20,565 bases of DNA from a virus: UHGV virus genome UHGV-0070025; one strand, given 5' to 3'. The position numbers and the translations under genes are program-made. The stretch's first letter is position 1, and each line of letters begins with the position of its first letter. Positions 516-17,103 of the stretch are shown one piece after another. The notes under the pieces are model-generated. The model was not told the DNA's origin. It saw nothing but the letters and a program-made list of their open reading frames with translations, and searched no databases.

Positions 516-890
516 ATGCTCATAGATTTGGTTTTACCTTACCCGCCGACGGTGAACACTTACTGGCGACGCCGTGGCAGCACATATTTTATCTCGGAGG
601 AGGGAAAGCGTTATCGCCGGGCTGTGGCGCTTATTGTTCGCCAGCAGCGGCTGAAATTAAGCCTGTCCGGAAGGCTGGCGATAAAGGTGATTGCAGAGCC
701 ACCGGATAAGCGTCGTCGCGACCTGGACAATATCCTGAAAGCACCGCTGGATGCGCTGACGCATGCGGGAGTGTTAATGGACGATGAGCAGTTTGATGAA
801 ATCAATATCGTTCGTGGTCAGCCAGTATCTGGTGGACGTATGGGGGTGAAGATTTACCCCATAATGCATGAAGAGCAGGTCAAAAAATGA
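516..890 (+). CDS. rusA: crossover junction endodeoxyribonuclease RusA (Holliday junction resolvase)
   Basis: 124 aa; translation has RusA-typical N-terminus (LPYPPTVNTYWRRRG) and the RRRDLDN(I)LKA..DALT catalytic acidic motif; AAGAGG Shine-Dalgarno upstream; position just before Q. Confidence 0.9.
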   Translation: MLIDLVLPYPPTVNTYWRRRGSTYFISEEGKRYRRAVALIVRQQRLKLSLSGRLAIKVIAEPPDKRRRDLDNILKAPLDALTHAGVLMDDEQFDEINIVRGQPVSGGRMGVKIYPIMHEEQVKK

Positions 891-1708
891 AACTGGAAGA
901 TTTACCGAAATACTACTCCCCAAAATCCCCTGGCCTGACCGATGCATCGGCCTCAACGTCAAAAGATGCGCTGAGTATCACTGATGTGATGGCCGCGCAG
1001 GGCATGACACAGAATCGGGCTGAGATGGGGTTTTCTGCGTTCCTGGGGAAAATGGGCATCAGTATGAATGACAGGGCGCGGGCAACAGAATTACTGGCAG
1101 ATTATGCACTCAGTCGGTGCGATCGTGTGGCGGCGTTGAGAAAACTTCCGGCAGAAATAAAACCGGTAGTGATGCGCATTATGGCTTCGTATGCGTTTGA
1201 AGATTATGCCCGTAGCGCGGCGAGCAAAAAACAGTGCCCTTGCTGTCACGGAAAAAAATTTATTGAAAGCGAGGTTTTTACAAACAAGATCCAGTATCCG
1301 GATGGTAAGCCACCAGTGTGGGCAAAGTGCACAAAAGGCGTGTATCCGTCTTACTGGGAAGAATGGAAAAAAGTCAGGGAGGTGGTAAAAGTTGCCTGTC
1401 CGGAGTGTGGCGGAAAGGGTGAGGTTTCCACCGCCTGTAAGGATTGCCGTGGGCGTGGTGTCGCCATTCATCGTGAAGAGTCGGTAAAACGTGGTATGCC
1501 TGTTATCAGAGATTGCCAGCGTTGTGGTGGTCGTGGCTGTGAAAGGCTGCCATCAACGGAGGCATTTAATGCCATATGCAAAGTGACGAGTGCTATCACG
1601 CTTGATACGTGGAAAAAATCAGTGAAACGCTTTTACGATACGTTGGTGGTTCGGTTTGACATTGAAGAGGCATGGGCGGAGCGGCAGTTAAAGAGGGTAA
1701 CGCGATAG
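887..1708 (+). CDS. late-gene antitermination protein Q homologue with Cys-rich zinc-finger region
   Basis: 273 aa; ATGA start/stop overlap with rusA; four CxxCxGxG-like repeats (CPCCHGKK, CPECGGKG, CKDCRGRG, CQRCGGRG); lies immediately upstream of a pR'-like promoter and short terminator, the canonical Q position. Confidence 0.65.
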   Translation: MKLEDLPKYYSPKSPGLTDASASTSKDALSITDVMAAQGMTQNRAEMGFSAFLGKMGISMNDRARATELLADYALSRCDRVAALRKLPAEIKPVVMRIMASYAFEDYARSAASKKQCPCCHGKKFIESEVFTNKIQYPDGKPPVWAKCTKGVYPSYWEEWKKVREVVKVACPECGGKGEVSTACKDCRGRGVAIHREESVKRGMPVIRDCQRCGGRGCERLPSTEAFNAICKVTSAITLDTWKKSVKRFYDTLVVRFDIEEAWAERQLKRVTR

Positions 1709-1710
1709 TG

Positions 1711-1760
1711 TTGTTGATTTTTCCCGAATCTGTGGTAAATTTGCTCTAACGATGGGCGTT
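1711..1760 (+). promoter_or_regulatory. late promoter pR'-like with putative Q-utilisation/pause region
   Basis: GGTAAATTTGCTCTAACGATGGG (1733-1756) closely resembles the lambda pR' -10 and initial transcribed region as I recall it (GGGTAAATTTGACTCAACGATGGG); candidate -35 TTGATT at 1714-1719. Confidence 0.55.
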
Positions 1761-1787: not shown

Positions 1788-1812
1788 CACCCCGCCGCCT
1801 GGCGGGTTTTTT
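1788..1812 (+). terminator. intrinsic terminator (tR'-like) about 40-60 nt downstream of the pR' start
   Basis: CCCGCC-GCCT-GGCGGG hairpin followed by TTTTTT. Confidence 0.75.
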
Positions 1813-1932
1813 ATGACTGAAATCGCGTCAGTACAGTAAACGCGCTGGTGGCGGTGAATACCTGTCTTTCAGCTTGCTGGCTTTTTCGACAAGAGTTATT
1901 GGTGTGTCACGTTAACCGGAAAAGGAAAAGAC

Positions 1933-2130
1933 ATGCTAAAACAGCAGGATATGACAGAAACCGCCAGAGTGGTGTTTAATGAATTAAGCGTTACCGACCC
2001 GGCGACAGTCGGGGAGATAGCGCAGAATACTTACCTTTCACGCGAACGCTGCCAGTTAATACTGACTCAGCTGGTTATGGCGGGTCTGGCAGACTATCAG
2101 TTCGGTTGTTACAGACGCCTTCCGCAGTGA
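1933..2130 (+). CDS. small hypothetical protein, possible helix-turn-helix
   Basis: 65 aa; AAGGAAAAG RBS 6 nt upstream of ATG; segment TVGEIAQNTYLSRERCQLIL looks HTH-like; stop codon sits inside a terminator hairpin. Confidence 0.5.
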   Translation: MLKQQDMTETARVVFNELSVTDPATVGEIAQNTYLSRERCQLILTQLVMAGLADYQFGCYRRLPQ

Positions 2131-2144
2131 AGGCTTTTTTATTT
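2117..2144 (+). terminator. intrinsic terminator
   Basis: GCCTTC-cgcagt-GAAGGC hairpin followed by TTTTTTATTT. Confidence 0.7.
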
Positions 2145-2158
2145 GTGGTAAATGGGCG

Positions 2159-2187
2159 GCTGGTGGGTGTTAGGGGCACCCACCAGC
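2159..2187 (+). promoter_or_regulatory. 11-bp perfect stem hairpin following a second TGTGGTAAAT motif
   Basis: GCTGGTGGGTG-ttagggg-CACCCACCAGC; no U-tract; directly preceded by TGTGGTAAAT (2144-2153), identical to the pR' -10 region at 1731-1740. Confidence 0.35.
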
Positions 2188-2280
2188 CATCTGCTCATGC
2201 GTCCGGATCACAAGCAAACCTCAGGCCCACTGCTTTGCGCAAAAGCAGAATGAGCCTATCAGAGACAGGCTTAATGATCC

Positions 2281-3365
2281 ATGCTTAATACTGTAAAAAT
2301 ATCCAGTTGTGAGTTAATCAACGCCGACTGCCTGGAATTTATCCGGTCGTTACCCGAAAATTCTGTTGACCTGATAGTCACGGACCCGCCGTACTTTAAA
2401 GTGAAGCCTGAGGGCTGGGATAACCAGTGGAAGGGCGACGATGATTACCTGAAGTGGCTGGACCAGTGTCTGGCGCAGTTCTGGCGGGTGCTGAAACCTG
2501 CCGGAAGTCTTTACCTGTTCTGTGGTCATCGCCTGGCATCTGATATCGAAATCATGATGCGTGAACGCTTCAGTGTGCTGAACCATATTATCTGGGCGAA
2601 GCCGTCCGGACGCTGGAACGGATGCAACAAGGAAAGGCTGCGGGCGTATTTCCGTGACTAAACAAGGAAGGGCGGGGGGCTTTTTCCCCCGCCACAGAGC
2701 GCATTCTGTTCGCGGAACATTATCAGGGGCCGTATCGTCCGAAAGATGCCGGGTATGCGGCGAAGGGCAGTGCACTGAAACAGCATGTGATGGCCCCGCT
2801 GATTTCTTACTTTCGTGATGCGCGCGCGGCCCTGGGGATAACGGCAAAACAGATTGCAGATGCCACAGGAAAGAAAAACATGGTGTCGCACTGGTTCAGT
2901 GCCAGTCAGTGGCAGCTACCGAATGAAAGCGATTATCTGAAATTACAGGCGCTGTTTGCCCGGGTGGCAGAAGAGAAGCATCGGCGTGGTGAACTGGAAA
3001 AGCTCCACCACCAGCTGGTGGATACGTATACCTCACTGAACCGGCAGTATGCGGAGCTGCTGAGTGAATATAAACATCTGCGGCGGTATTTTGGCGTGAC
3101 GGTGCAGGTGCCGTATACCGATGTGTGGACGCATAAACCGGTGCAGTTCTATCCCGGGAAACATCCGTGCGAAAAACCGGCAGAAATGCTGCAGCAGATA
3201 ATCAGCGCAAGTAGCCGTCCTGGTGATCTGGTTGCGGATTTTTTCATGGGGTCGGGTTCAACGGTAAAAGCGGCGATGGCACTGGGGCGTCGTGCGATTG
3301 GTGTTGAGCTGGAGACCGGACGTTTTGAGCAGACAGTCAGGGAAGTTCAGGATTTAATCGTTTGA
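2281..3365 (+). pseudogene. beta-class (DPPY...FxGxG) DNA N6-adenine/N4-cytosine methyltransferase, interrupted between the two halves
   Basis: N-terminal part (2281-2661, frame 1) carries motif IV LIVTDPPY. C-terminal part (frame 3, open from 2658, ORF-track start 2787, to 3365) carries motif I DFFMGSGST. Frame 1 stops at TAA 2659-2661; frame 3 has TGA at 2655-2657. The halves cannot be joined without a frame change. Confidence 0.75.
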
Positions 3366-3414
3366 AACGGATGAGATTGCAGAATTAATTACGCACCATT
3401 ATTATTCTGCTCCC

Positions 3415-3490
3415 GGCCCTTTAGCTCAGTGGTGAGAGCGAGCGACTCATAATCGCCAGGTCGCTGGTTCAAATCCAGCAAGGGCCACCA
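3415..3490 (+). tRNA. tRNA with anticodon CAT (Ile2-lysidine or Met type)
   Basis: 76 nt cloverleaf: acceptor GGCCCTT/AAGGGCC, D-arm GCTCAGTGGTGAGAGC, anticodon loop CTCATAA, T-loop TTCAAAT, 3' CCA encoded. Matches the ileZ position of Stx-type phages. Confidence 0.9.
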
Positions 3491-3497
3491 TCACATA

Positions 3498-3574
3498 CCG
3501 CCATTAGCTCATCAGGATAGAGCACCAGCCTTCGAAGCTGGTTGCGCGGGGTTCGAGTCCTCGATGGCGGTCCA
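3498..3574 (+). tRNA. tRNA-Arg (anticodon TCG)
   Basis: 77 nt: acceptor CCGCCAT/ATGGCGG, anticodon stem CCAGC/GCTGG with loop CTTCGAA, T-loop TTCGAGT, CCA encoded. Confidence 0.85.
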
Positions 3575-3587
3575 TTATCTGTACCCT

Positions 3588-3664
3588 GCGTTGTTAGCTC
3601 AACCGGACAGAGCAATTGCCTTCTAAGCAATCGGTCACTGGTTCGAATCCAGTACAACGCGCCA
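3588..3664 (+). tRNA. tRNA-Arg (anticodon TCT)
   Basis: 77 nt: acceptor GCGTTGT/ACAACGC, anticodon stem ATTGC/GCAAT with loop CTTCTAA, T-loop TTCGAAT, CCA encoded. Confidence 0.9.
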
Positions 3665-3678
3665 GACTTATTTTTCCC

Positions 3679-3704
3679 GGCTCGCTTTTGCGGGCCTTTT
3701 TTTT
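3679..3704 (+). terminator. intrinsic terminator after the tRNA cluster
   Basis: GGCTCGC-tttt-GCGGGCC stem (one G.U pair) followed by T8. Confidence 0.7.
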
Positions 3705-3710
3705 AAATGT

Positions 3711-3925
3711 CTCACAATTCAGACGGTTGACAGTTGTCTGTTTTGCGGGGAGTTTGTTAAAAGAAACTGGCATGGTGAATCCCCCTGTGCGGATGGGCAA
3801 TCAGCGAGTAGGTATATGGGATAATCGCGGATTCAGGTGCTGGTACTGAATTCACCGGGAGGCACCCGGCACCATGCAATGGCACATAGCGCCACTCTCC
3901 AGCCCCTCTCCGGAGGGGCTTTTCT
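3711..3925 (+). ncRNA. candidate structured small RNA, tandem unit A
   Basis: Begins with CTCACAATTCAG then TTGACA; shares conserved blocks with unit B (TTTGTTAAAA, GCATGGTGAATCCCCCTG, CACCGGGAGGCACCCGGCACCATG); ends in terminator GCCCCTC-tccg-GAGGGGC + TTTTCT (3902-3925). No convincing ORF. Confidence 0.35.
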
Positions 3926-4114
3926 GTGCCGGATACATCACAGTTTCTGGAACCTTAGGTACTACAGTATCAGTCAGGGTGCTATATTTTCAGATGTGAT
4001 GAAAGCCTGTCAGCAGGCAGGGCGTATCGGAAATGACCCAGTAGAGAAAACGTTGACTCAGATACCGGTGCTGAGTTACCGGGAAACCGGCATCACATGA
4101 CCGCTATCCTTCCA

Positions 4115-4141
4115 GGCCCATCCGCTCCGGTGGGCCTTTTT
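4115..4141 (+). terminator. intrinsic terminator
   Basis: GGCCCA...TGGGCC stem followed by TTTTT. Confidence 0.55.
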
Positions 4142-4178
4142 ACTGCAGAAAACAGGTTCCCCGTTAAATGCTATGTTG

Positions 4179-4412
4179 CTCACAATTCAGTAAGTTGACA
4201 GTTGCCTGTCAGACTGGGCATTTGTTAAAAAAATTTCGCATGGTGAATCCCCCTGAGCGGAGGGGCGACTGGTGACGGTATAATCTCTGATTATCAAAAC
4301 GAGAATGACGCGGGTTTAGTGGCACCGGGCTGAACTCACCGGGAGGCACCCGGCACCATGTGCATGATGATACAGATACGCGGCTTTAGCCCCTCTCCGG
4401 AGGGGTTTTCTT
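4179..4412 (+). ncRNA. candidate structured small RNA, tandem unit B (paralogue of unit A)
   Basis: Same block order as unit A, 468 bp downstream; contains a perfect TATAAT at 4279-4284; ends in terminator GCCCCTC-tccg-GAGGGG(T) + TTTTCTT (4389-4412). Confidence 0.35.
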
Positions 4413-4417
4413 GTGGG

Positions 4418-4447
4418 CAAAAAAAGCCCGCGCTGGGAGACGCGGGC
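4418..4447 (-). terminator. minus-strand intrinsic terminator, back-to-back with the unit B terminator
   Basis: On the minus strand: GCCCGCG-tctcccag-CGCGGGC followed by TTTTTTT (the plus-strand A-run at 4418-4425). Confidence 0.45.
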
Positions 4448-4640
4448 GGCAAGGAATAAACAATAAAACGTGAAGTAATATTTCAGCTGGCGAATAATAC
4501 CCCATAGTAATCACTCTGCGCAACTGCGCGGTCTTTTTCGAATTGCGGGCTGTCGTCTCTCTTCTGCCATTGTCCTGTAACTTCCGGACTTCAGCCCGCT
4601 CCTTATTTTACTCACAATATTATCCCGGCCGGGAGGATTC

Positions 4641-4868
4641 ATGGCATTTAAACACTATGACGTGGTCAGGGCGGTATCGCCGTCAGACCTTGCGAAACGA
4701 CTGACACAAAAACTGAAGGAGGGCTGGCAGCCGTTTGGTAGTCCGGTGGCCATAACCCCTTATACCCTGATGCAGGCGATTGCAGCAGAAGGTGATGTGG
4801 TGGTCAGTGGTGCAACTGAGCCGGATTGGTACTACGTCATCGTACTGGCCCGGCATTCCAGGCCATAA
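4641..4868 (+). CDS. small phage protein, DUF1737-like
   Basis: 75 aa; GGGAGG RBS 5-6 nt upstream of ATG; pattern YDVV..S.SDLAKRL..KL.EGWQPFG resembles DUF1737 as I recall it (unverified). Confidence 0.6.
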   Translation: MAFKHYDVVRAVSPSDLAKRLTQKLKEGWQPFGSPVAITPYTLMQAIAAEGDVVVSGATEPDWYYVIVLARHSRP

Positions 4869-5072
4869 AAGACAGTCTGGCAGTGGGACTAAATGCACTG
4901 ACGCTGATGGATATTACCAAAAATGTAACGTATGGCGTTGAGATAGAAAGTCTGGCGCTGGAGATAAATGCACCGGCATCATCATAAAAAGTGAGCCAGT
5001 CAAATGGAAGGTATCGTTAAACTCACCGGTAGTGTCAGTGGGTCGTCTGAGACGCTTGCATGAGTTATCAGA

Positions 5073-5102
5073 GCCATCAGTAGTTAACTGGTGGCTTTTT
5101 TA
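5073..5102 (+). terminator. intrinsic terminator just upstream of the lysis cassette
   Basis: GCCATCAG-tagttaa-CTGGTGGC (one G.U pair) followed by TTTTTTATTGTTTT. Confidence 0.65.
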
Positions 5103-5136
5103 TTGTTTTCAGCTTCCGGATAACGGGAGACGGGGT

Positions 5137-5352
5137 ATGGACCAGATGGAAAAAATCACAACAGGTGTGTCATACACCACGTCAGCGGTGGGAACGGGCT
5201 ACTGGTTCCTGCAGTTGCTGGACAGGGTTTCCCCGTCTCAGTGGGCGGCAATAGGCGTGCTGGGGAGTCTGCTGTTTGGGCTGCTGACATATCTGACTAA
5301 CCTGTATTTCAAAATCAGAGAGGACCGTCGTAAGGCGGCACGGGGAGAGTAA
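5137..5352 (+). CDS. S: class II holin / pinholin (phage 21 S-like) with dual-start motif
   Basis: 71 aa from ATG 5137; GGGAGA RBS; begins MDQMEK (Met1 and Met4, as in S21 antiholin/holin pair); C-terminus [22 protein letters not shown] matches S21 as recalled. The ORF-track start at 5032 is an upstream in-frame extension. Confidence 0.85.
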
Positions 5353-5356
5353 TTCA

Positions 5357-5701
5357 ATGACTCAAAACTATGAACTGATTGTGAAAGGGATCCGCAATTT
5401 TGAGAATAAAGTTACGGTAACTTTAGCGTTACGGGACAAAAAACGCTTTGACGGTGAAATTTTTGACCTGGACATCTCGCTGGACCGTGTTGAAGGTGCT
5501 GCGCTGGAGTTTTATGAGGCAGCGGCCAGAAGGAGCATCAGACAGGTCTTCCTGGATGTCGCTGCCGGGTTATGTGAAGGGGATGAGCAGTCGCCGGAAA
5601 AGCGCCCCGTAATTTTAGAGGCGCAGAATGTGTGGATAACCTACAAAGGAAAGCTACCGGGAAGGATTACTGGTTCCCTGAAGACTCCGCCGAAATGGTA
5701 G
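5357..5701 (+). CDS. hypothetical protein (accessory gene inserted between holin and endolysin)
   Basis: 114 aa; GGGGAGAG RBS overlapping the holin stop (translational coupling); no transmembrane segment evident; no family recognised. Confidence 0.6.
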   Translation: MTQNYELIVKGIRNFENKVTVTLALRDKKRFDGEIFDLDISLDRVEGAALEFYEAAARRSIRQVFLDVAAGLCEGDEQSPEKRPVILEAQNVWITYKGKLPGRITGSLKTPPKW

Positions 5702-5939
5702 TTTTGCCAGCATAATTTTCTTCCAGCAATGCCGCCAGCCACTTGAAAGAATTTTGTTGTTCCTGGGACCATTTGGGGTTGCGTGATTCAAAATGAATGG
5801 ATGCCAGCGTTGGCAGCATTTGCTCCCTGGGAATTGATAAGGCCAGATGTGAAAATGCAACAGTGAGGGCATTTACATCATCCCGAAGCCTGGAAATGCA
5901 GTCGAGCAACTCCTGTAGAGAAATGGTGCTATTGTCCAT
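5667..5939 (-). CDS. hypothetical protein, convergent with and 3'-overlapping the preceding gene
   Basis: 90 aa on the minus strand; strong GAGGA RBS 6-7 nt upstream of ATG; 35-nt 3' overlap with the + strand ORF; no family recognised. Confidence 0.55.
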   Translation of the reverse strand: MDNSTISLQELLDCISRLRDDVNALTVAFSHLALSIPREQMLPTLASIHFESRNPKWSQEQQNSFKWLAALLEENYAGKTTISAESSGNQ

Positions 5940-6044
5940 AAATAATCCTCTTGATTGTCTTTACCTTTTCCCCGCCTGATTCAACAGGCCGGGACAGATA
6001 AACATATCCAGGGTTCAGAAACCGATAAATCCTGATAAATATCC

Positions 6045-6578
6045 ATGAACGCAAAAATCAAATACGGCCTGTCAGCTGCAGTTCTGGCGCTGATTGGAGC
6101 AGGCGCATCAGCTCCTCAGATACTTGACCAGTTTCTGGATGAAAAAGAAGGTAACCACACAACGGCATACCGCGATGGTTCCGGCATCTGGACCATCTGT
6201 CGGGGTGCCACGATGGTGGATGGAAAACCCGTTTTTCCCGGTATGAAACTGTCGAAGGAAAAATGCGACCAGGTCAACGCCATTGAGCGTGATAAGGCGC
6301 TGGCATGGGTGGAGCGCAATATTAAAGTACCACTGACCGAACCACAAAAAGCGGGTATCGCGTCATTTTGTCCCTATAACATTGGCCCCGGTAAGTGTTT
6401 TCCATCGACGTTTTATAAGCGGCTGAATGCTGGTGATCGTAAGGGCGCATGCGAGGCGATTCGCTGGTGGATAAAAGATGGTGGGCGCGATTGCCGCATA
6501 CGTTCAAATAACTGCTATGGACAGGTTATTCGTCGTGACCAAGAAAGCGCATTAGCCTGTTGGGGAATAGATCAGTGA
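6045..6578 (+). CDS. R: SAR endolysin (lysozyme, phage 21 R / RrrD-like)
   Basis: 177 aa; N-terminal Gly/Ala-rich weakly hydrophobic segment ([16 protein letters not shown]) typical of signal-anchor-release domains; catalytic-region motifs (EG..TAYRD..G.WTICRG) resemble T4-lysozyme-type phage lysozymes. Confidence 0.9.
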
Positions 6579-7042
6579 GCAGAGTCGCCGCGATTATTTA
6601 TGCTCTGGTTATCTGCATCATCGTCTGCCTGTCGTGGGCGGTCAATCATTACCGTGATAACGCCATCACCTACAAAGAACAGCGTGATAAAAAAGTCAGT
6701 GAGCTGAAGCAGCTGACCGCCACCATCGCTGACATGCAGCAGCGTCAGCGTGATGTTGCTGCGCTCGATGCAAAGTACTCGAGAGAATTAGCCAATGCGA
6801 AAGCTGAAAATGAAACTCTGCGCGCTGATGTTGCCGCTGGTCGTAAGCGCCTGCGGGTCAATGCCAGTTGCTCCGCAGCCGTGCGTGAAGCCACCGGACC
6901 CACCAGCGTGGATAATGCAACCAGCCCCAGACTGGCAGACACCGCTGAACGGGATTATTTCACCCTCAGAGAACGGTTGATGACGATGCAGAAGCAACTG
7001 GAAGGGGCACAGCTATACATTCGTGAGCAATGTCTCAGATAA
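6575..7042 (+). CDS. Rz: Rz inner-membrane spanin
   Basis: GTG start overlapping the endolysin stop; N-terminal transmembrane helix ([17 protein letters not shown]) then coiled-coil periplasmic domain; contains the embedded Rz1 frame. Confidence 0.85.
6795..6980 (+). CDS. Rz1: Rz1 outer-membrane lipoprotein spanin, embedded in the +1 frame of Rz
   Basis: 61 aa; lipobox LVVSAC; proline-rich mature part ([30 protein letters not shown]) nearly identical in pattern to lambda Rz1. Confidence 0.85.
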
Positions 7043-7197
7043 AAACCGGCCAAGGATAATCCGCTAAAGATTCGCCGGTGGCGAAAGAGAGCCAAGGTGT
7101 CAACCTACGCTATTACTTATGATAATGCAACAGACGAAGCGGGACATATTGGCGCATAACAAATCAGTGCAGGCTAACTGCAGGAAGAACTTAGGGC

Positions 7198-7464
7198 GTG
7201 AACGTAGAAAACCTAAGTAACGCACATTACATCTATAACGAGATGAAAGAGCTACAGCGACAGAAAGGTATACTGGAAAGTGGTGCAGGGCTTGGTGTGA
7301 CAATCCAGTCTGCCTATCAATATAGTGCTTTTCTTGAGGCCATACGCCCGCATGCAGTTGCTGAACTTAACAGCCGTATTGAGGAAAAGAAATCCGCGCT
7401 GGTTAATTTGGGTGCTTCCTTCTCTATATACGAGCATAATAAGGCGGGTTGGAAACCCGCCTAA
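7198..7464 (+). CDS. hypothetical small protein (uncertain)
   Basis: 88 aa from GTG (alternative ATG at 7243); weak RBS; the 3' end runs through the hairpin that serves as terminator for the convergent minus-strand gene. Confidence 0.3.
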   Translation: MNVENLSNAHYIYNEMKELQRQKGILESGAGLGVTIQSAYQYSAFLEAIRPHAVAELNSRIEEKKSALVNLGASFSIYEHNKAGWKPA

Positions 7465-7469
7465 AGCAC

Positions 7470-8009
7470 TTAGAAACTGCGTGGAGCTGTGGAAAGAATG
7501 GATGCCAGTTCTTCCTTCGATAAATCCCAGCTTCGATTTACAGCGTCAATTTTCTTAAACTCATCAAGCATTGCGTTATAGAGATGTTCTGTACGTGAAT
7601 GAGTATTGGCAATGGGCTGTTTCTGTTCGGGGAAGCGATCAATTTTCTGATATGCCTCAATGATACTGAAGTAATCGCATTCATTATTACCGTCGAAACC
7701 TGGGAGCTGAATTGCCCCATCATGTATTTTTAGATGATGGTCACGGACTAATTCTTTTTGCTCGTCATCACTAAGTTTCCTGAAAGCATTGGAAAGTCCG
7801 CGATACATATTCAAGACAGCAGTAACAAAATCACGATCTTCTTTACTTGGTTCGTCAACATCCAAATGTGAATATTCGGCCTTGATAACCCAATCATTAC
7901 CAGATGACACAGCATATTTAACAAGCTGTGGATCAATATCAGTTTCGATACCTAGGTGGATGGCAATGTCACATAACAAAATGGTATTGATTTTATCTTT
8001 AATATCCAT
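7470..8009 (-). CDS. hypothetical accessory protein, possibly YfbU-family (UPF0304)-like
   Basis: 179 aa; GAGGG RBS on minus strand; AT-richer than flanking phage genes; followed on the minus strand by hairpin GGCGGGTT/AACCCGCC (about 7444-7462) and a U-rich tail; YfbU resemblance is from memory of the E. coli protein and is unverified. Confidence 0.6.
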   Translation of the reverse strand: MDIKDKINTILLCDIAIHLGIETDIDPQLVKYAVSSGNDWVIKAEYSHLDVDEPSKEDRDFVTAVLNMYRGLSNAFRKLSDDEQKELVRDHHLKIHDGAIQLPGFDGNNECDYFSIIEAYQKIDRFPEQKQPIANTHSRTEHLYNAMLDEFKKIDAVNRSWDLSKEELASILSTAPRSF

Positions 8010-8147
8010 GAGTTAACCCTCTGAAGTAAAAAGTAATATCTACACCCGTTGGCTCATGAAGTCTATTGATCTGTCTCATATCAGCAGCAAATCTATTCCA
8101 TGGAGATACTCAATGCAGGTCACCTTTGATTTATATAAGGGCGAAAC

Positions 8148-8498
8148 ATGCCAGCACTAATCCCACGCGCCTGCCGTAAGCGTGGATGTGCAGGTACAAC
8201 CACAGACAGTTCTGGTTACTGCGATAAACATCGTGGCGAAGGATGGGTACAGCATCAACGCGGACTGAGCCGCCACCAGCGTGGCTATGGCTCGAAATGG
8301 GATGCCATACGTGCGCGCATACTGAAGCGTGATAATCATCTGTGTCAGAACTGCCTGCGCAATGGGAGAGCCGTTGAAGCCAGAACTGTGGACCACATCA
8401 TTCCGAAAGCTCATGGTGGCACGGATGCAGACAGTAACCTGCAGAGTCTGTGCTGGCCCTGTCATAAAGCAAAAACAGCGCGCGAACGCATCAATTGA
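8148..8498 (+). CDS. HNH homing-type endonuclease associated with the terminase
   Basis: 116 aa; N-terminal Cys cluster (CRKRGC...CDKH) and HNH core (CQNCLRNGR...VDHIIPKAHGG...NLQSLCWPCHKAK); sits directly upstream of the small terminase, as in HK97-like cos phages. Confidence 0.85.
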   Translation: MPALIPRACRKRGCAGTTTDSSGYCDKHRGEGWVQHQRGLSRHQRGYGSKWDAIRARILKRDNHLCQNCLRNGRAVEARTVDHIIPKAHGGTDADSNLQSLCWPCHKAKTARERIN

Positions 8499-8645
8499 TA
8501 ACAGCTCCCATCTGCAGGGGAGGGGCGGGTCAAATCTCTGCAACCCTGGCTGTTCAGTACCGCCGCCTGACCTTTCCTCGCATCGCCGCAGGTTCGAAAA
8601 CTTTTTTTTGGAATGTGATTAAATGATTGATAGGTAAAACCGATT

Positions 8646-9128
8646 ATGTCTGGACCCCCGAAAACCCCGCCACGCCTGCATTTGATACGAGGCAACCCCT
8701 CAAAGCGGCCAGTTAAAGACCTCAAAAAAACCGCTAAAAAGGATGAAAAAGGTCTCCCTAAAATTCCGCAACATTTAGGGGCGCAGGGGAAGTACTGGTT
8801 CAGGCGAATGGCGGAAGAGCTGAATGCGGAAGGGATCATTTCTCAGCTTGATGCGCGTGCGCTTGAGCTACTGGTGGAAGCCTATACCGAATACCGGCAT
8901 CACTGCGAAACACTCGATGTTGAGGGGTACACCTACCGCTCGGAAACGCAGAACGGTGATGTGCTGATTAAGGCACACCCAGCTGCTGCGATGAAAGCGG
9001 ATGCCTGGAAGCGGATCCGGGCGATGCTTGCAGAATTTGGTATGTCACCGGCAAGCCGGGCAAAAGTAAATACCGCCGGACCGGATAATGTTGATCCGCT
9101 GGCAGAGCTTTTAAAAGCGAGAGACTGA
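8646..9128 (+). CDS. terminase small subunit (P27-family-like)
   Basis: 160 aa; position between HNH and large terminase; stop overlaps the large-terminase ATG (ATGA). Confidence 0.8.
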   Translation: MSGPPKTPPRLHLIRGNPSKRPVKDLKKTAKKDEKGLPKIPQHLGAQGKYWFRRMAEELNAEGIISQLDARALELLVEAYTEYRHHCETLDVEGYTYRSETQNGDVLIKAHPAAAMKADAWKRIRAMLAEFGMSPASRAKVNTAGPDNVDPLAELLKARD

Positions 9129-10885
9129 TGGCAAAAGTGGCTGACGGGATCCGCTACGCCGAACGTGTTGTTGCAGGAGAAATTGTTGCTGGCGAATTTG
9201 TCCGCCTGGCCTGCCAGCGTTTTCTTGATGATCTGAAGTACGGCGAAAAGCGGGGGATTTATTTCAGTGAACCCCGTGCGCAGCACATCCTGAATTTCTA
9301 CAAATTTGTGCCTCATGTAAAAGGGGCACTGGCAGGCCAGCCCATTGAGTTGATGGACTGGCATGTATTTATCCTCATTAATATTTTTGGTTTTGTCATT
9401 CCGCTGGTCAATGAAGAAACCGGGGAAGTTGTCATGCGCAGCGATGGCAGCGGACGTCCGGTGATGGTGCGCCGGTTCCGGACGGCGTACAACGAAGTCG
9501 CCCGTAAAAACGCAAAATCAACCCTGTCATCGGGTATCGGCCTGTATATGACGGGGGCAGATAGTGAAGGCGGAGCTGAGGTGTATTCAGCCGCAACCAC
9601 GCGTGACCAGGCCAGAATCGTGTTTGAAGACGCCAAAAATATGGTCAGAAAAGCCCGGTCGACACTCGGGCGGTTGTTTGATTTCAACAAGCTGGCGATT
9701 TACCAGGAGCAGAGCGCATCAAAATTTGAACCGCTTTCCTCGGATGCAAACAACCTGGACGGTCTGAACATCCACTGCGCCATTATTGATGAGCTGCATG
9801 CACATAAAACCCGCGACGTGTGGGACGTTCTGGAGACGGCAACCGGTGCCCGTCTGCAGTCTCTGTTATTTGGCATCACCACGGCTGGCTTTAACAAGGA
9901 AGGGATTTGTTACGAGCAGCGTGATTACGCCATCAAGGTATTGCGAGGCTATAACAGCGACGTGGAGGGCGCGGTAAAAGACGACTCCTACTTTGCGATC
10001 ATTTACACGCTCGATGAGGGAGATGATCCGTTTGATGAAACGGTCTGGCAGAAAGCGAATCCTGGCCTGGGCATCTGTAAACGCTGGGATGATCTGCGTC
10101 GTCTGGCGAAAAAAGCGAAGGAGCAGGTCTCTGCGCGGGTGAATTTTTTTACCAAACACATGAATGTGTGGGTCACTGCCGAATCTGCCTGGATGGATAT
10201 GATTAAGTGGGAGAAGTGCGAATACATTGCTCCACAACATGAGCTGAAAACATATCCCATGTGGGTCGGCGTCGACCTTGCTCATAAGATTGATATCTGT
10301 GCGGCGGCAAAACTCTGGCGAACCGATAACGGACATGTTCATGCTGATTTTAAATTCTGGCTTCCGGAAGGACGGCTGGAACGATGCTCGCGGCAGCAGG
10401 CAGAACTTTACCGGAAGTGGGCGGAGATGGATAAGCTCATCCTGACGGATGGTGATGTTATCGATCATGCTCAGATAAAAAGTGACTTACTGGAATGGAT
10501 TGGCGGTGAAAACCTCAGGGAACTGGGATTTGACCCGTGGAGCGCAATGCAGTTCAGCCTGGCACTGGCTGAAGAAGGGATACCGCTGGTGGAGGTTCCG
10601 CAGACGGTCCGCAATCTGTCAGAGGCCATGAAGGAAACGGAATCACTGGTTTATGCCGGGCGTTTCCATCACAGCAATCATCCGGTCATGAACTGGATGA
10701 TGTCTAACGTTACTGTAAAACCGGACAAAAACGACAACATCTTCCCGAATAAATCCACGCCGGAAGCCAAAATCGACGGCCCTGTTGCGCTTTTTACAGC
10801 CATGAGCCGCTTTCTGGTAAATGGCGGGGGCGTGAATGACTTTCTGTCCACGCTTGATCCTGATGAGGACTTGTTAATTCTGTGA
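9128..10885 (+). CDS. terminase large subunit
   Basis: 585 aa; N-terminal ATPase region and C-terminal nuclease region typical of HK97/Terminase_1-type large terminases; gene order terS-terL-portal. Confidence 0.95.
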   Translation: MAKVADGIRYAERVVAGEIVAGEFVRLACQRFLDDLKYGEKRGIYFSEPRAQHILNFYKFVPHVKGALAGQPIELMDWHVFILINIFGFVIPLVNEETGEVVMRSDGSGRPVMVRRFRTAYNEVARKNAKSTLSSGIGLYMTGADSEGGAEVYSAATTRDQARIVFEDAKNMVRKARSTLGRLFDFNKLAIYQEQSASKFEPLSSDANNLDGLNIHCAIIDELHAHKTRDVWDVLETATGARLQSLLFGITTAGFNKEGICYEQRDYAIKVLRGYNSDVEGAVKDDSYFAIIYTLDEGDDPFDETVWQKANPGLGICKRWDDLRRLAKKAKEQVSARVNFFTKHMNVWVTAESAWMDMIKWEKCEYIAPQHELKTYPMWVGVDLAHKIDICAAAKLWRTDNGHVHADFKFWLPEGRLERCSRQQAELYRKWAEMDKLILTDGDVIDHAQIKSDLLEWIGGENLRELGFDPWSAMQFSLALAEEGIPLVEVPQTVRNLSEAMKETESLVYAGRFHHSNHPVMNWMMSNVTVKPDKNDNIFPNKSTPEAKIDGPVALFTAMSRFLVNGGGVNDFLSTLDPDEDLLIL

Positions 10886-11043
10886 AACAGCTTATTACTG
10901 ATATGACCGGGCTGATCGGTTTCGGTTTGCTCACTGCTGGCGTTTATCTGTATGCAGGTCTGCCAGCGTCTCTGATGCTGTCGGGCTGTTTGTTGCTGCT
11001 TTATGCACTGGTGGTGTCCATGAGGAGAAAACATGCTTCTTGA
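10882..11043 (+). CDS. possible small membrane protein between terminase and portal (uncertain)
   Basis: 53 codons from GTG overlapping the terL stop (alternative ATG at 10903); two hydrophobic stretches (GLIGFGLLTAGVYLYAGL, LMLSGCLLLLYALVV); weak RBS; overlaps the portal start. Confidence 0.3.
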   Translation: MKQLITDMTGLIGFGLLTAGVYLYAGLPASLMLSGCLLLLYALVVSMRRKHAS

Positions 11044-12259
11044 TGCTCTGTTTCGCAGTGAGCCTCTGGAAAATCCCTCGGTTCCGGTAACCGGAGAGGC
11101 CGCTGAGACGGATAATATTTTTGCCCGGGATGTGTATGTCAGTCCGGAAACATCCATGAAGCTGGCTGCTGTCTATGCCTGTATTTATGTTATTTCATCC
11201 AGTGTGGCTCAGATGCCCCTGCATGTGATGCGAAAAACGAATGAGCATGTTCAGCCGGCACGCGATCACCCGTTGTTCTGGCTCGTTCATGATGAACCTA
11301 ATGCCTGGCAGACCAGCTATAAGTGGCGGGAACTGAAGCAGCGTCATGTGCTGGGGTGGGGCAATGGTTATACGTGGGTAAAACGTAATCGTCGTGGCGA
11401 GGTTACCAGTCTTGAATGCTGTATGCCATGGGAAACCACGTTACTTAACACCGGAGGGCGTCATACCTACGGTGTGTATAACGAAGAGGGTGCATTTGCG
11501 GTAAGTCCGGACGACATGATCCATATCAGGGCGCTGGGAAACAATCAGAAAATGGGACTGAGTCCGATCATGCAGCATGCTGAAACCATTGGTATGGGAA
11601 TGAGTGGTCAGCAGTATACCAGTGCTTTTTTTAACGGTAATGCCCGTCCTGCCGGGATTATTTCTGTGAAAAATGAACTGAACGAACAGAGTTGGAGCAG
11701 GCTCAAGAATATGTGGCAGCGGGCGGTGACAGCGCTTCGCAGTCAGGAAAATAAAACCATGCTGCTGCCTGCGCAACTGGATTACCGCGCTCTGACAGTT
11801 TCTCCGGTGGATGCTCAGATCATTGATATGACCAAGCTGAACCGGTCGATGATTGCCGGGATTTTTAATGTCCCGGCGCACATGATTAATGACCTGGAAA
11901 AAGCCACATTTTCGAATATTACGCAGCAGGCGATTCAGTTTGTTCGCTACACGATGATGCCCTGGGTTGCGAACTGGGAGCAGGAGCTTAACCGTCGCCT
12001 GTTTACCCGTACAGAACGGGCTGCCGGGTATTACGTTCGTTTCAACCTCACGGGGTTGCTCCGTGGGACCCCACAGGAGCGTGCGCAGTTCTATCACTTT
12101 GCCATTACAGATGGCTGGATGAGCCGGAATGAAGCCAGGGCATTTGAGGATATGAACCCGGTTGACGGTCTGGATGAAATGCTGGTCAGCGTAAATGCAG
12201 CAAATCCGTTGAATAACTTTAAAGATACGAAAGGCAAAGAGGAAAAGAACGATGAATGA
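11033..12259 (+). CDS. portal protein (HK97 family)
   Basis: 408 aa; GAGGAG RBS; size and position after terL; sequence resembles HK97-type portals. Confidence 0.9.
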   Translation: MLLDALFRSEPLENPSVPVTGEAAETDNIFARDVYVSPETSMKLAAVYACIYVISSSVAQMPLHVMRKTNEHVQPARDHPLFWLVHDEPNAWQTSYKWRELKQRHVLGWGNGYTWVKRNRRGEVTSLECCMPWETTLLNTGGRHTYGVYNEEGAFAVSPDDMIHIRALGNNQKMGLSPIMQHAETIGMGMSGQQYTSAFFNGNARPAGIISVKNELNEQSWSRLKNMWQRAVTALRSQENKTMLLPAQLDYRALTVSPVDAQIIDMTKLNRSMIAGIFNVPAHMINDLEKATFSNITQQAIQFVRYTMMPWVANWEQELNRRLFTRTERAAGYYVRFNLTGLLRGTPQERAQFYHFAITDGWMSRNEARAFEDMNPVDGLDEMLVSVNAANPLNNFKDTKGKEEKNDE

Positions 12260-12851
12260 CCGTGAAACGCGCTGTTACAGCGGGGAGGTGCGGGCGGAAC
12301 AATATGATAATGCCCCGACCCACATTCTGGGCTATGGCTCGGTATTTAACAGTCGTTCAGAACCTCTGTGGGGATTTCGTGAAATCATCAAGCCGGGGGC
12401 TTTTGATGATGTACTGAATGATGATGTACGTGGCTTGTTTAATCATGATCCTAATTTCATTCTCGGACGAAGTTCTGCCGGCACGTTGTCATTGTCGGTG
12501 GATGAACGCGGTTTACGTTATGACATTGTTGCACCGGATACTCCGACTATTTGTGACCTGGTGCTGTCTCCAATGTTGCGTGGTGACATTAATCAGTCCT
12601 CGTTCGCGTTTCGTGTCGCCCGTGACGGAGAGAGCTGGTATGAAGACGACGAGGGGATTGTTATCCGGGAAATCACGCGCATTTCTCGTCTGTATGACGT
12701 CAGCCCGGTGACATATCCGGCCTATCAGGACGCAGACTCTGGTGTCCGCTCAATGAAAGCCTGGCAGGAAGCGCGGGCGAGTGGTGCGCTGAAGAAAGCT
12801 GTTAACGAACGAATGGCGCGTGAGCGTCTTTTGACCCTTCTTAATGCATAA
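12252..12851 (+). CDS. prohead maturation protease (HK97 family, S78-like)
   Basis: 199 aa; start overlaps the portal stop; position between portal and capsid. Confidence 0.9.
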   Translation: MNDRETRCYSGEVRAEQYDNAPTHILGYGSVFNSRSEPLWGFREIIKPGAFDDVLNDDVRGLFNHDPNFILGRSSAGTLSLSVDERGLRYDIVAPDTPTICDLVLSPMLRGDINQSSFAFRVARDGESWYEDDEGIVIREITRISRLYDVSPVTYPAYQDADSGVRSMKAWQEARASGALKKAVNERMARERLLTLLNA

Positions 12852-12865
12852 GGATACTACTGACG

Positions 12866-14083
12866 ATGAAACTTCATGAGATGAAGCAAAAACGAAACAC
12901 CATTGCAAAGGATATGCGTGCACTGCATGAAAAAATTGGTGATAACGCATGGACTGATGAGCAACGGGCAGAGTGGAACAGGGCGAAAGCTGAGCTGGAT
13001 GCGCTGGATGAGCAAATCGCCCGTGAAGAAGAGTTGCGCCGTCAGGATCAGGCATATGTGGATGAGTCCGGGCCGGAAGAGCGCCAGAATAATGAGGCGG
13101 AGAACGGGAAAAAGGCGGTGGAAGAGAAGCGCGCTGCGGCATTTAACCGTTTTCTGCGTGCCGGATTTGCAGAACTGAATGCTGAAGAGCGTAATCTGAT
13201 GCGTGAACTGCGGGCTCAGAGTGTAACAACGGATTCTCAGGGCGGATATACGGTGCCCACGCAGATGCGTAACAAAATCATTGACACCATGAAGGCTTAT
13301 GGCGGGATTGCCAGTGTGGCGCAACTTCTGACCACATCAACCGGGCAGGATATCACCTGGTCAACGTCTGATGGCACGACTGAAGAGGGCGAACTGCTGG
13401 CGGAAAATACAGCCGCAACGGAACAGGATGTGACGTTCGGGACCGCTATTCTGGGGGCTAAAAAGCTGTCATCAAAAATAATTCGTGTGTCCAATGAGCT
13501 GCTCCAGGACAGTGGGGTGGATATTGAATCTTATCTGGCAAACCGTATTGCCCAGCGTATTGGTCGTGGAGAGGCAAAATATCTGGTTCAGGGGACCGGA
13601 ACGGGATCACCGTTACAGCCAAAAGGGCTGGCAGCGTCGGTGACGGGAACCATCCAGACTGCAGCCTCTGCCGCTTTCACCTGGAAAGAAATGAATGCCC
13701 TGAAACATGCCATTGATCCGGCATATCGTGGTGGGCCGAAATACCGCTGGGCATTCAATGATGCCACATTGCAGACTATTGAAGAGATGGAGGATGGACA
13801 GAAACGCCCGTTATGGCTGCCGGATATTGCAGGCGGTACGCCGGCTACTGTGCTGGGGATCCCTTATGTTATTGATCAGGCTATTGACGGGATTGGTACC
13901 GGAAAAAAATTCATTTTCCTGGGGGATTTCAACCGCTTTATCATTCGCCGCGTTACTTATATGGAACTGAAACGTCTGGTTGAGCGTTATGCTGAGTTTG
14001 ATCAGGTGGCATTTCTGGCTTTCCATCGTTTTGACTGTGTGCTGGAAGATGTGGCAGCCATCAAGGCGCTCACTGGCAAATAA
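12866..14083 (+). CDS. major capsid protein (HK97 fold) with N-terminal coiled-coil delta/scaffold domain
   Basis: 405 aa; AAGGA RBS; N-terminal charged coiled-coil about 100 aa followed by a capsid domain; followed by a terminator. Confidence 0.9.
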   Translation: MKLHEMKQKRNTIAKDMRALHEKIGDNAWTDEQRAEWNRAKAELDALDEQIAREEELRRQDQAYVDESGPEERQNNEAENGKKAVEEKRAAAFNRFLRAGFAELNAEERNLMRELRAQSVTTDSQGGYTVPTQMRNKIIDTMKAYGGIASVAQLLTTSTGQDITWSTSDGTTEEGELLAENTAATEQDVTFGTAILGAKKLSSKIIRVSNELLQDSGVDIESYLANRIAQRIGRGEAKYLVQGTGTGSPLQPKGLAASVTGTIQTAASAAFTWKEMNALKHAIDPAYRGGPKYRWAFNDATLQTIEEMEDGQKRPLWLPDIAGGTPATVLGIPYVIDQAIDGIGTGKKFIFLGDFNRFIIRRVTYMELKRLVERYAEFDQVAFLAFHRFDCVLEDVAAIKALTGK

Positions 14084-14104
14084 CCACTCGTTGTTCAGTT
14101 ACAG

Positions 14105-14127
14105 ACCGCGCCGACGCGGTTTTTTTA
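14105..14127 (+). terminator. intrinsic terminator after the major capsid gene
   Basis: ACCGCG-ccga-CGCGGT followed by a T-run; a second hairpin GCCCGCA-cagtgt-TGCGGGC follows at 14129-14148. Confidence 0.7.
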
Positions 14128-14159
14128 TGCCCGCACAGTGTTGCGGGCAGGAGTTTCTG

Positions 14160-14477
14160 ATGGCAGCAATAGTGGAAAAACTCAGGGCGCAGTGCCGTAT
14201 TGATACAGATGATGCAACTGATGATGAGTTACTGATGCTGTATTTCCGGGCTGCCTGCCGCAAGGCAGAAAATTTTATCAACCGTAAGCTTTATGAGGAG
14301 ACGGTGCCAGAAGGTGATCCTGAAGGGGTGCTTATAGCTGATGATGTTTTGCTGGCGCTCATGTTGCTGGTCGGGCACTGGTACGAAAACCGGGAAAATT
14401 CCTCAGATGTCAGCAAGGCACCAGTCCCGTTTGGTTTTTCTTCTCTTCTGGAGCCTTATCGTTTTATTCCTTTGTAG
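14160..14477 (+). CDS. head-tail connector / DNA-packaging protein (gp6-like)
   Basis: 105 aa from ATG 14160 with AGGAG RBS (the ORF-track start at 13980 is an in-frame upstream extension across the terminator); position after the capsid gene. Confidence 0.8.
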   Translation: MAAIVEKLRAQCRIDTDDATDDELLMLYFRAACRKAENFINRKLYEETVPEGDPEGVLIADDVLLALMLLVGHWYENRENSSDVSKAPVPFGFSSLLEPYRFIPL

Positions 14478-14485
14478 GAGGAGAC

Positions 14486-14824
14486 ATGCAGGCGGGCAGA
14501 TTACGTGATCGCGTAATTATTCTGAATGTCACCACCGCCCGCTCTCCGTCAGGGCATCCGGTGGAGACGGTGACGGAGGGAGCTACCGTATGGGCAGAAG
14601 TTAAGGGTATCAGCGGGAGGGAGATAATCTCAGGCGGAGCAGAAACCGCTCAGGCTACGGTCAGAGTCTGGATGAGATTCCGGCGCGATGTGACAGCGAC
14701 TTCACGTCTGAAAGTGCTGACCGGTGCATTCAAAGGCGCGATTCTGGGTATAGAAGGTCCACCAATACCGGATGCACGCGCTACCCGGCTTGAAATGCTC
14801 TGCAGCCTGAAGGGAAATGTGTGA
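14486..14824 (+). CDS. head closure / head-tail joining protein
   Basis: 112 aa; AGGAGG RBS; position and size. Confidence 0.8.
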   Translation: MQAGRLRDRVIILNVTTARSPSGHPVETVTEGATVWAEVKGISGREIISGGAETAQATVRVWMRFRRDVTATSRLKVLTGAFKGAILGIEGPPIPDARATRLEMLCSLKGNV

Positions 14825-15270
14825 TGGATTTCAGTCTTGATTTTTCCGGCCTGGCGGATATTGCACGGGATTTGGAGGCGCTCAGCAGGGCAGAAAACAA
14901 TAAGGTTCTGCGCGATGCCACCCGTGCCGGTGCTGAAGTTATGCGGGATGCAGTTGTTGAACGTGCGCCGGAGCGAACCGGGAAACTGAAGAAAAATGTG
15001 GTTGTTCTCACTCAGCGTTCAAAGCGTCGGGGGGAAATTATCTCGGGTGTCCACATTCGCGGACGGAACCTGCGAACCGGAAACAGTGATAACAGCATGA
15101 AAGCCAGCGATCCCCGAAATGCATTTTACTGGCGCTTTGTGGAGCTGGGAACGATAAACATGCCCGCGCATCCATTCATTCGTCCGGCTTTCGATACGAC
15201 AGAGGAGCTGGCGGCGCAGGTTGCCATACAGCGAATGAATCAGGCTATTGATGAGGTCTTAAGTAAATGA
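14821..15270 (+). CDS. HK97 gp10-family tail component
   Basis: 149 aa; start overlaps the previous stop; position in the HK97-like head-tail joining module. Confidence 0.75.
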   Translation: MMDFSLDFSGLADIARDLEALSRAENNKVLRDATRAGAEVMRDAVVERAPERTGKLKKNVVVLTQRSKRRGEIISGVHIRGRNLRTGNSDNSMKASDPRNAFYWRFVELGTINMPAHPFIRPAFDTTEELAAQVAIQRMNQAIDEVLSK

Positions 15271-15611: not shown

Positions 15612-15631
15612 GGTCGTTAATGATTTACCCA

Positions 15632-15657
15632 CCCGCCGCTGGCGGGTTTTTTTATTT
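15632..15657 (+). terminator. intrinsic terminator
   Basis: ACCCGCC-gct-GGCGGGT followed by TTTTTTTATTTT; nearly identical stem to the tR'-like terminator at 1788-1812. Confidence 0.7.
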
Positions 15658-15670
15658 TCAGGAGACGAGT

Positions 15671-17063: not shown

Positions 17064-17072
17064 GTCAACATA

Positions 17073-17094: not shown

Positions 17095-17103
17095 GTCCGG
17101 AGA

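Follow-up and report, generated by a model that had tools for sequence, protein, structure and literature searches.

The tRNA cassette

The viral genome UHGV-0070025 was analysed as a single stretch of 20,565 nucleotides (nt), referred to here as the window. An initial annotation, made from the letters alone, had singled out positions 3415–4640, where three tRNA genes followed by RNA-like units appeared to parallel the ileZ-argN-argO block found upstream of the toxin genes stxAB in Shiga-toxin (Stx) phages. The tRNA genes were detected with ARAGORN and the Rfam tRNA model (gathering score 29), and ARAGORN reported exactly three in the whole 20.5-kb window, all on the plus strand. Their coordinates and anticodons (CAT, TCG and TCT) are exactly those proposed in the initial annotation, and on the late-gene strand they follow one another in the order CAU, UCG, UCU, by which the cassette is recognized. 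The elements at the locus, including one open reading frame (ORF), are listed below.

3378–3406, plus strand: sigma-70 promoter of the cassette, TTGCAG-N17-TATTAT, 8 nt upstream of ileZ (assigned from its conserved architecture)
3415–3490, plus strand: ileZ, tRNA-Ile2 type, CAU anticodon (ARAGORN cat; Rfam 72.5 bits)
3498–3574, plus strand: argN, tRNA-Arg, UCG anticodon (ARAGORN tcg; Rfam 56.2 bits)
3588–3664, plus strand: argO, tRNA-Arg, UCU anticodon (ARAGORN tct; Rfam 70.1 bits)
3679–3704, plus strand: intrinsic terminator closing the tRNA cassette, GC-rich hairpin and T-run (terminator scan)
3708–3931, plus strand: STnc100 unit of type A, in the stx position (Rfam match 3741–3931, RF02076, 130.4 bits; terminator 3901–3920)
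3932–4178, plus strand: middle unit, degenerate and STnc100-like, in the stx position (Rfam match 3970–4143, RF02076, 30.1 bits, below the gathering score of 47 bits)
4178–4418, plus strand: STnc100 unit of type B, backbone copy (Rfam match 4209–4418, RF02076, 161 bits)
4426–4447, minus strand: convergent intrinsic terminator, back to back with the terminator of the type B unit (terminator scan)
4641–4868, plus strand: DUF1737 ORF of 75 amino acids (aa) (PF08410, E 2e-16)

The three tRNA genes are 100%, 92.2% and 98.7% identical to ileZ, argN and argO as annotated in the Stx2a phage AP012536, and ileZ is also 100% identical to the first tRNA gene of the Stx2a phage LC567838 and of E. coli UTI89. 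ARAGORN labels the CAT tRNA as Met because the label reflects only the unmodified anticodon. The gene is 89.5% identical to ileX of K-12 (tRNA-Ile, CAU) versus 70% to the elongator tRNA-Met genes metT and metU, it retains the acceptor pairs C4-G69 and C5-G68 of ileX, which we take to be TilS determinants, and the identical gene of UTI89 is annotated as tRNA-Ile by the Prokaryotic Genome Annotation Pipeline (PGAP). Judged by these features, it appears to be an ileX-type tRNA-Ile and not a tRNA-Met, and should be called tRNA-Ile, as the name ileZ had already implied in the initial annotation; lysidine modification of the CAU anticodon and decoding of AUA are expected. A conserved mismatch, A27-C43, was also observed in ileZ. 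The third gene, argO, is 71% identical to argU of K-12, and its UCU anticodon would read AGA and AGG.

The TCG anticodon of argN had been marked as one that would not be the default for arginine in E. coli, and indeed the K-12 Arg tRNA genes fetched carry ACG, CCG, UCU and CCU, with no UCG among them. TCG is, however, the normal anticodon of argN, as it is present in AP012536 and in 80 of 82 argN-like genes of IMG/VR viral contigs among the matches listed, the remaining two carrying TCT. The anticodons of phage Stx2a_1447 are identical to those of the window trio, and ARAGORN returned patterns like that of the window for loci L001 and L002, tct/tct for both Arg tRNAs of the Stx2 phage locus L003, and TCT was found for argN of LC567838.

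The conservation of the elements that frame the trio is marked. The architecture TTGnnn-N16-18-TATTAT-N8-11-tRNA was found at 82 of 82 ileZ loci among the matches listed and in 23 of 23 distinct upstream variants; it is kept despite unrelated upstream DNA, including cases in which it directly abuts a terminator, and the spacer positions vary. A primary transcription start for these tRNAs has been mapped in the Sakai Stx2 phage (Sy et al., PMC7547250), in agreement with the promoter at 3378–3406. A hairpin and T-run of the 3679–3704 type is retained in most of 31 downstream variants, in differing contexts, and at some loci the cassette follows directly after tR', the terminator of the late-gene module described below, without a methyltransferase gene. 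In the usage of Juhala et al. (2000), a moron is an accessory element of a phage operon that brings a promoter and a terminator of its own and is present or absent between conserved neighbours. Since a promoter and a terminator are conserved around the trio, the cassette would, on sequence criteria, fit this definition.

The same features bear on the possibility that the tRNA genes have no function in the phage and are passive relics, either left by integration at host tRNA genes or derived from host DNA taken up in an aberrant excision. Two papers interpret tRNA sequences near such loci as markers of integration or transduction (PMC7366253; Zhu et al. 2026 preprint), and some argN copies, such as those of the UTI89 type, have two stem mismatches, G58 and a score of 43 bits. 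However, the three cloverleaves of the window are full-length and lie midway through the late region rather than at a prophage end, and the genes are not host copies, given the identities to ileX and argU stated above and the lack of a UCG gene among those fetched from K-12. Moreover, ileZ is identical in 72 of the 82 loci listed (eight variants among 82 copies), although the flanking DNA differs by 8–9%, and the promoter and terminator are conserved around a trio for which a transcription start has been mapped in Sakai. The tRNA genes are thus highly unlikely to be passive relics.

In argN, 30 sequence variants were found among 79 argN-type copies in the matches listed; the full variant list comprised 31 sequences and 80 copies, from which that of locus L046, an unrelated tRNA sharing only the anticodon arm, was left out. 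Most of the variation falls in the D- and T-loops; stem mismatches and G58 are seen in some copies, and in a few phages the anticodon has changed from TCG to TCT. No double compensatory changes were found among these variants, which had been collected with a pattern that fixes the anticodon arm. The argN gene of the window forms an intact cloverleaf with one G-U pair, in contrast to the degraded variant of UTI89; its U73 discriminator and C1-G72 first pair, read from the sequence, are unusual for tRNA-Arg. Sixteen differences between the window and UTI89 cluster in 277 bp at 3518–3794, from argN through argO and the terminator into the first STnc100 unit; to the left, only the substitution at 2637 and a 35-nt insertion at 2652–2686 were found, and to the right the two sequences are identical up to 5427. 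The 277-bp segment looks like a recombination patch. Unusually fast evolution of argN relative to UTI89 was considered and rejected, as the six argN differences belong to this patch with identical flanks and are not tRNA-specific.

The toxin position

The cassette lies between the late antitermination module (Q at 887–1708, tR' at 1791) and the lysis genes (holin at 5138). A megablast search with 2200–5400 against the phage collection matched 391 records, mostly Stx2a-, Stx1a- and Stx2c-converting phages, to which the query aligns piecewise on either side of stx2A and stx2B. Window positions 1791–3705 align with positions 2086–3968 of the LC567838 locus at 91.8% identity, in a block that stops 50 nt before stx2A (4019–4978), and the sequence in common with Stx2 phages ahead of that gene finishes with the cassette terminator at 3679–3704. 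Window positions 4180–4799 align with 5305–5937 of the same locus at 85% identity, in a block that begins 46 nt after stx2B (4990–5259). The toxin interval therefore measured 1336 bp with stx2AB in the Stx2 phage versus 474 bp (3706–4179) in the window, where it holds the STnc100 unit of type A followed by the degenerate middle one.

The synteny comparison suggested in the initial annotation thus showed that the window and Stx2 phages are collinear to the left and to the right of stx2AB, and the parallel that it had drawn with the ileZ-argN-argO block, at 100%, 92% and 98.7% identity, is borne out. The likeness to the Stx2a/c/d phages (933W, Sp5, Stx2a_1447) extends to the same genes in the same order and spacing, to the upstream 65-aa ORF and methyltransferase gene and to the same promoter and terminator around the trio; the window differs in that its methyltransferase gene is disrupted and that it lacks stxAB. 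In a tblastn search of the whole window with Stx2A and Stx2B of a Stx2a phage, only chance matches (E >= 0.5) were obtained, Stx1 being given no separate query, and there was no match to either protein between the tRNA genes and the holin gene, including 3665–4640. The statement that no toxin genes follow the trio is therefore upheld, and the window prophage, with no stxAB after its tRNA genes, lacks the defining feature of an Stx-converting phage. The layout q-tRNA-stx-nanS-p-S has been described as the 'stx region' (PMC7366253).

The toxin-free arrangement is widespread. The segment 3300–5400 is present in full length at 99.2% identity in UTI89, S88, IHE3034, NU14, PMV-1, ATCC 11775 and others, as part of toxin-free prophages, and among 5426 complete E. 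coli genomes 260 contain at least 80% of it and 3626 contain part. In UTI89 the gene order is like that of the window (Q, ORF, methyltransferase, three tRNAs, two STnc100 genes, a DUF1737 fragment annotated as a pseudogene, and holin), with an intact methyltransferase gene as a difference, and the prophages carried by extraintestinal pathogenic E. coli (ExPEC) diverge from the window in their lysis and head genes from about 6150 onward.

A survey was made of 54 loci with argO and at least 1.5 kb of downstream sequence, comprising the window, three fetched records and IMG/VR contigs, the latter picked by an argN anticodon-arm pattern and including many near-identical E. coli prophages, so that the counts are indicative only; the survey also relied on the assumption that the Stx2A query detects Stx1A. 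Among the matches listed, stx was absent from 43 of the 54 loci and present in 11. Each of the 11 stx loci listed has one STnc100 core, located after stxB, and in 10 of them the unit is, by similarity, of type B. The 43 stx-free loci listed comprise 31 with one STnc100 core, usually about 190 nt after argO, eight with two and four with none; the unit next to the tRNA genes is of type A, again by similarity, in 30 of the 43. The array of type A, middle and type B units was found in at least seven loci, including the window and UTI89. The toxin-free state is therefore the common, indeed the majority, state, and the arrangement is not new, being already known and annotated in reference genomes such as UTI89. 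The initial annotation had described a non-toxigenic relative in which the toxin slot carries RNA cargo; this stands in so far as stx is absent and small RNA (sRNA) genes occupy the slot, but the window is not a special derivative.

These data also bear on the question of whether the prophage is a recent deletion derivative of an Stx2 phage that has lost stxAB. Both flanks of stx2AB are present at 85–92% identity, and the right flank includes a type B STnc100 unit, as in 10 of the 11 Stx loci listed, followed by the esterase-start sequence. On the other hand, the window contains no stx-derived sequence, its 474-bp stretch is absent from the Stx2 phages examined and includes the type A unit typical of stx-free loci (30 of the 43 listed), and stx-free loci outnumber Stx loci by 43 to 11 among the matches listed. 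As the flanks are only 85–92% identical, a recent derivation from an Stx2 phage is not indicated, and such an origin is considered distinctly unlikely. A recombinant origin, from a type A stx-free phage and a type B phage, fits at least as well.

The late-gene module and the downstream RNA units

The sequences upstream of the cassette and the gene that bounds the region on its right are listed below.

887–1708, plus strand: Q late antiterminator, 273 aa (PF03589, Antiterm, E 2e-49)
1713–1754, plus strand: pR'-like late promoter, TTGATT-N16-TGgTAAATT then AACGAT (promoter at 1713–1740; read from the sequence)
1791–1806, plus strand: tR' intrinsic terminator, CCCGCCGCCTGGCGGG then TTTTTT (element to 1812; terminator scan)
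1933–2130, plus strand: conserved 65-aa ORF (phrog_331, E 3e-37; terminator-like hairpin at 2117–2134)
2281–3365, plus strand: disrupted gene for a DNA N6/N4 methyltransferase (two ORF fragments, both PF01555)
5138–5352, plus strand: class II holin, where the bounding lysis cassette starts (PF04971, E 4e-32; UTI89 annotation)

The Q protein is 31% identical to lambda Q (BLASTP, E 1e-37), and the pR'-like promoter begins immediately after the Q stop codon. When this segment is aligned with the post-Q region of lambda, GGTAAATTTG, which includes the extended -10, and AACGATGGG are identical, and likewise the -10 hexamer TAAATT. The motif AACGAT, contained in AACGATGGG, is the element that induces the sigma-dependent pause at lambda pR'. 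A generic promoter scan missed the promoter, which matches 8 of 12 consensus positions and falls below the threshold. With a Q homologue, a promoter with AACGATGGG and an intrinsic terminator, the features of a lambda-type Q module are all present, and antitermination is predicted. The module differs from that of lambda in its pR'-tR' leader, which is about 60 nt long versus about 190 nt, and in an insertion of about 66 aa in Q, in which several CxxC motifs and a weak DnaJ_CXXCXGXG match, below the Pfam cut-off, were observed.

Position 1791, the first base of the tR' hairpin, is a mosaic joint at which the alignments to Stx2 phages start (1791/1792). Homology to the best complete E. coli genomes also begins at 1791/1792, and these cover 1791–20565 at 99.0% identity. 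Upstream of 1791, the allele of the Q/pR' module differs from that of Stx2 phages, whose Q genes are shorter; the lambda-Q-like protein of the window has 273 aa versus 126 aa or 113 aa in two Stx2 records.

Between tR' and the tRNA genes, the 65-aa ORF corresponds to a 198-nt ORF annotated in the same place in UTI89 and in Stx2 phages. The methyltransferase gene is split by a 35-nt imperfect tandem duplication (2652–2686), which creates a stop codon at 2659–2661; UTI89, where the gene encodes 349 aa, and Stx2 phages have it intact. The order Q, pR', tR' and then three tRNAs had thus been read correctly, although the first three elements lie outside 3415–4640 and the description passes over 1.6 kb with the 65-aa ORF and the broken methyltransferase gene, a segment equally present in Stx2 phages.

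Downstream of the cassette, the window has two full-length matches to STnc100 (130 and 161 bits), of which type B is orthologous to the copy after stx2B. It is 87% identical to positions 5310–5544 of the Stx2 phage locus L001, and since Stx2 phages carry an STnc100 gene directly after stx2B (5339–5554 in L001 and 5334–5548 in L003), the type B copy is conserved backbone and not cargo of the toxin position. The tandem RNA-like units said to fill the downstream space are therefore real, as two STnc100 genes and a sub-threshold third, but only type A and the middle unit occupy the toxin position. Judged by its location, the type B copy probably corresponds to EcOnc27, a 235/247-nt Hfq-bound RNA 3' of stx2B and convergent with AsxR; convergent sRNA genes have been described at this 'moron' site (Tree et al. 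2014, PMC4104026), and STnc100/EcOnc27 has been related to PasD (Zhu et al. 2026). Two tandem copies plus a degenerate third distinguish the window from most stx-free loci, which have one (31 of the 43 listed; two in eight). The motif CTCACAAT recurs at 3711–3740, 4179–4208 and 4611–4618: at the head of an STnc100 unit it stands twice and is followed by TCAG..GTTGACAGTTG, and its third occurrence closely precedes the start codon of the DUF1737 ORF. The motif may be a promoter element, a processing site or a recombination joint.

The middle unit has its own terminator at 4114–4137, and homologues were found in only five phage records. It could alternatively be a gene for a small protein of 55 or 33 aa rather than RNA cargo, since an ORF in it matches phrog_23557 (E 7e-30) and phage ON470612 has an annotated 55-aa coding sequence (CDS) that starts with ATG. 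The corresponding start position of the window reads ATA, however, and the 27 substitutions relative to ON470612 are distributed 8:10:9 by codon position, without enrichment at third positions. They are concentrated in the 5' half; conservation of the 3' half and of the terminator is what sRNAs typically show, and there is the weak Rfam match to STnc100. Similar PHROG families extend to ORFs over argO that are obviously spurious. Because of the ATA start, the 8:10:9 pattern and the conserved terminator-proximal half, a non-coding unit is favoured, and a protein-coding function appears unlikely. More generally, small ORFs in 3594–4704 have no Pfam matches, and their PHROG matches are to families of unknown function that overlap RNA genes. 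Minus-strand ORFs at 3594–3800 and 4209–4349, over argO and STnc100 genes, match phrog_27294 and phrog_24488, which are probably spurious gene calls on conserved RNA genes.

The several terminators mentioned in the initial annotation were recovered, with 12 terminator-like sites in 2700–6100 versus 3.1 +/- 2.1 in shuffled sequences. The minus-strand terminator at 4426–4447, a strong one, resembles the AgvB/AsxR loci (Tree et al. 2014) in its position and in its convergence with the terminator of STnc100; a promoter-like site was noted upstream of it on the same strand (4647–4619). An anti-sRNA of the AgvB/AsxR type was considered here and rejected. The conserved 3' region described for this family (Tree et al. 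2014) is about 42 nt long and includes the GCCCGAACCCAYTCGGGC terminator (Rfam RF02702/RF02703). The 3' module GTATCTCATGC..TTGCCCGAACCCA.TCGGGC, conserved in AgvB/AsxR, is absent from the window with up to three mismatches allowed, the Rfam AgvB/AsxR models gave no match at E <= 10 in 4380–4660, and the candidate folds no better than shuffled sequences (z = -1.6). A weak OmrA-B-like Rfam match of the minus-strand candidate scored 25 bits versus a gathering score of 40. As the motif, Rfam and folding tests were all negative, only a minus-strand terminator can be asserted, although minus-strand 4419–4612 may encode an antisense sRNA of 90–190 nt that is not of the AgvB/AsxR type.

The DUF1737-like ORF was also correctly recognized (4641–4868; Pfam DUF1737, E 2e-16). 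Over 4641–4798 it shares 92% identity with the opening 158 nt of a 1938-nt CDS after stx2B in L001, whose homologue in L003 bears the label yjhS, 9-O-acetyl-N-acetylneuraminic acid deacetylase. The ORF matches positions 1–82 of the 634-position phrog_143 profile, and the UTI89 copy is flagged as incomplete by PGAP. By sequence comparison it matches the N-terminal end of the large phage esterase gene downstream of stx2B; the gene in this position has been named nanS-p (PMC7366253). After the ORF and just before the holin gene, a terminator with a 12-bp stem was observed at 5070–5098, within 4990–5105, the position at which a preprint places the PasA/PasC sRNAs (Zhu et al. 2026).

Interpretation and significance

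The region is best explained, with a probability of about 0.9, as the accessory segment that is standard in the late leader of a lambda-like E. coli prophage, of the lineage from which the stx-flanking region of Stx2a/c/d phages is known, in its toxin-free form. Its order is Q, pR', tR', the small ORF, the broken methyltransferase gene, a self-contained tRNA cassette, the STnc100 sRNA genes, the esterase-start ORF and the lysis genes. In a lysogen, the tRNAs would be made constitutively from their own promoter, and after induction they would additionally be produced by Q-antiterminated read-through from pR'. The codons that they would help to decode are AUA, AGA/AGG and CGA/CGG, several of them used to excess in the genes of this phage. 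In Stx phages, stxAB is inserted between the cassette terminator and the type B STnc100 gene, the position that is held in the window by the type A STnc100 gene and the degenerate unit.

Codon usage, which the initial annotation had suggested examining, was compared between 25 ORFs of the window (5539 codons) and 12 genes of K-12 (3184 codons). The values of the K-12 sample are near the genome-wide ones. Per 1000 codons, the window and K-12 values are 5.4 and 0.6 for AGG, 5.6 and 2.5 for AGA, 14.1 and 5.0 for CGG, 4.9 and 3.1 for CGA, and 6.7 and 5.7 for ATA. Over-use was thus found for AGG, AGA and CGG, but only to a modest degree for CGA and ATA, while stx2A is much richer, with 46.9 ATA and 18.8 AGA per 1000. 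The phage's own genes would plausibly make use of argO and argN in the absence of the toxin as well, but the case for ileZ from this window is weak.

Several points weigh against this explanation. The survey counts are neither independent nor unbiased, as the IMG/VR loci were pattern-selected and include near-identical prophages. The codon excess is modest for ATA (1.2-fold) and CGA (1.6-fold), and transcription, processing, lysidine modification and aminoacylation of these tRNAs are predictions. In addition, argN has the lowest score of the trio (56 bits), is highly polymorphic and has the unusual U73, and its contribution and function appear less certain than those of ileZ and argO.

A more far-reaching proposal is that the array of type A, middle and type B units constitutes a distinct regulatory cargo of ExPEC-type prophages, in which the middle unit and the minus-strand transcript (to 4426–4447) would be uncharacterised sRNAs of the Hfq type. 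In concert with the rare-codon tRNAs, which would be expressed constitutively and of which one, the UCG tRNA-Arg, has no counterpart in the host, they might retune host translation and sRNA networks during lysogeny, and the UCG/UCU polymorphism of argN might reflect an ongoing anticodon shift. This proposal is speculative and considered rather unlikely.

The locus is of little significance on its own. It is of use for the annotation of prophages, in which the presence of the tRNA trio is no marker of a toxin phage and small ORF calls over tRNA and sRNA genes are probably spurious. It also illustrates that the Shiga-toxin genes are an insertion in a widely shared phage backbone, one that carries rare-codon tRNAs and sRNA genes and is common among non-toxigenic E. 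coli, uropathogenic strains among them.

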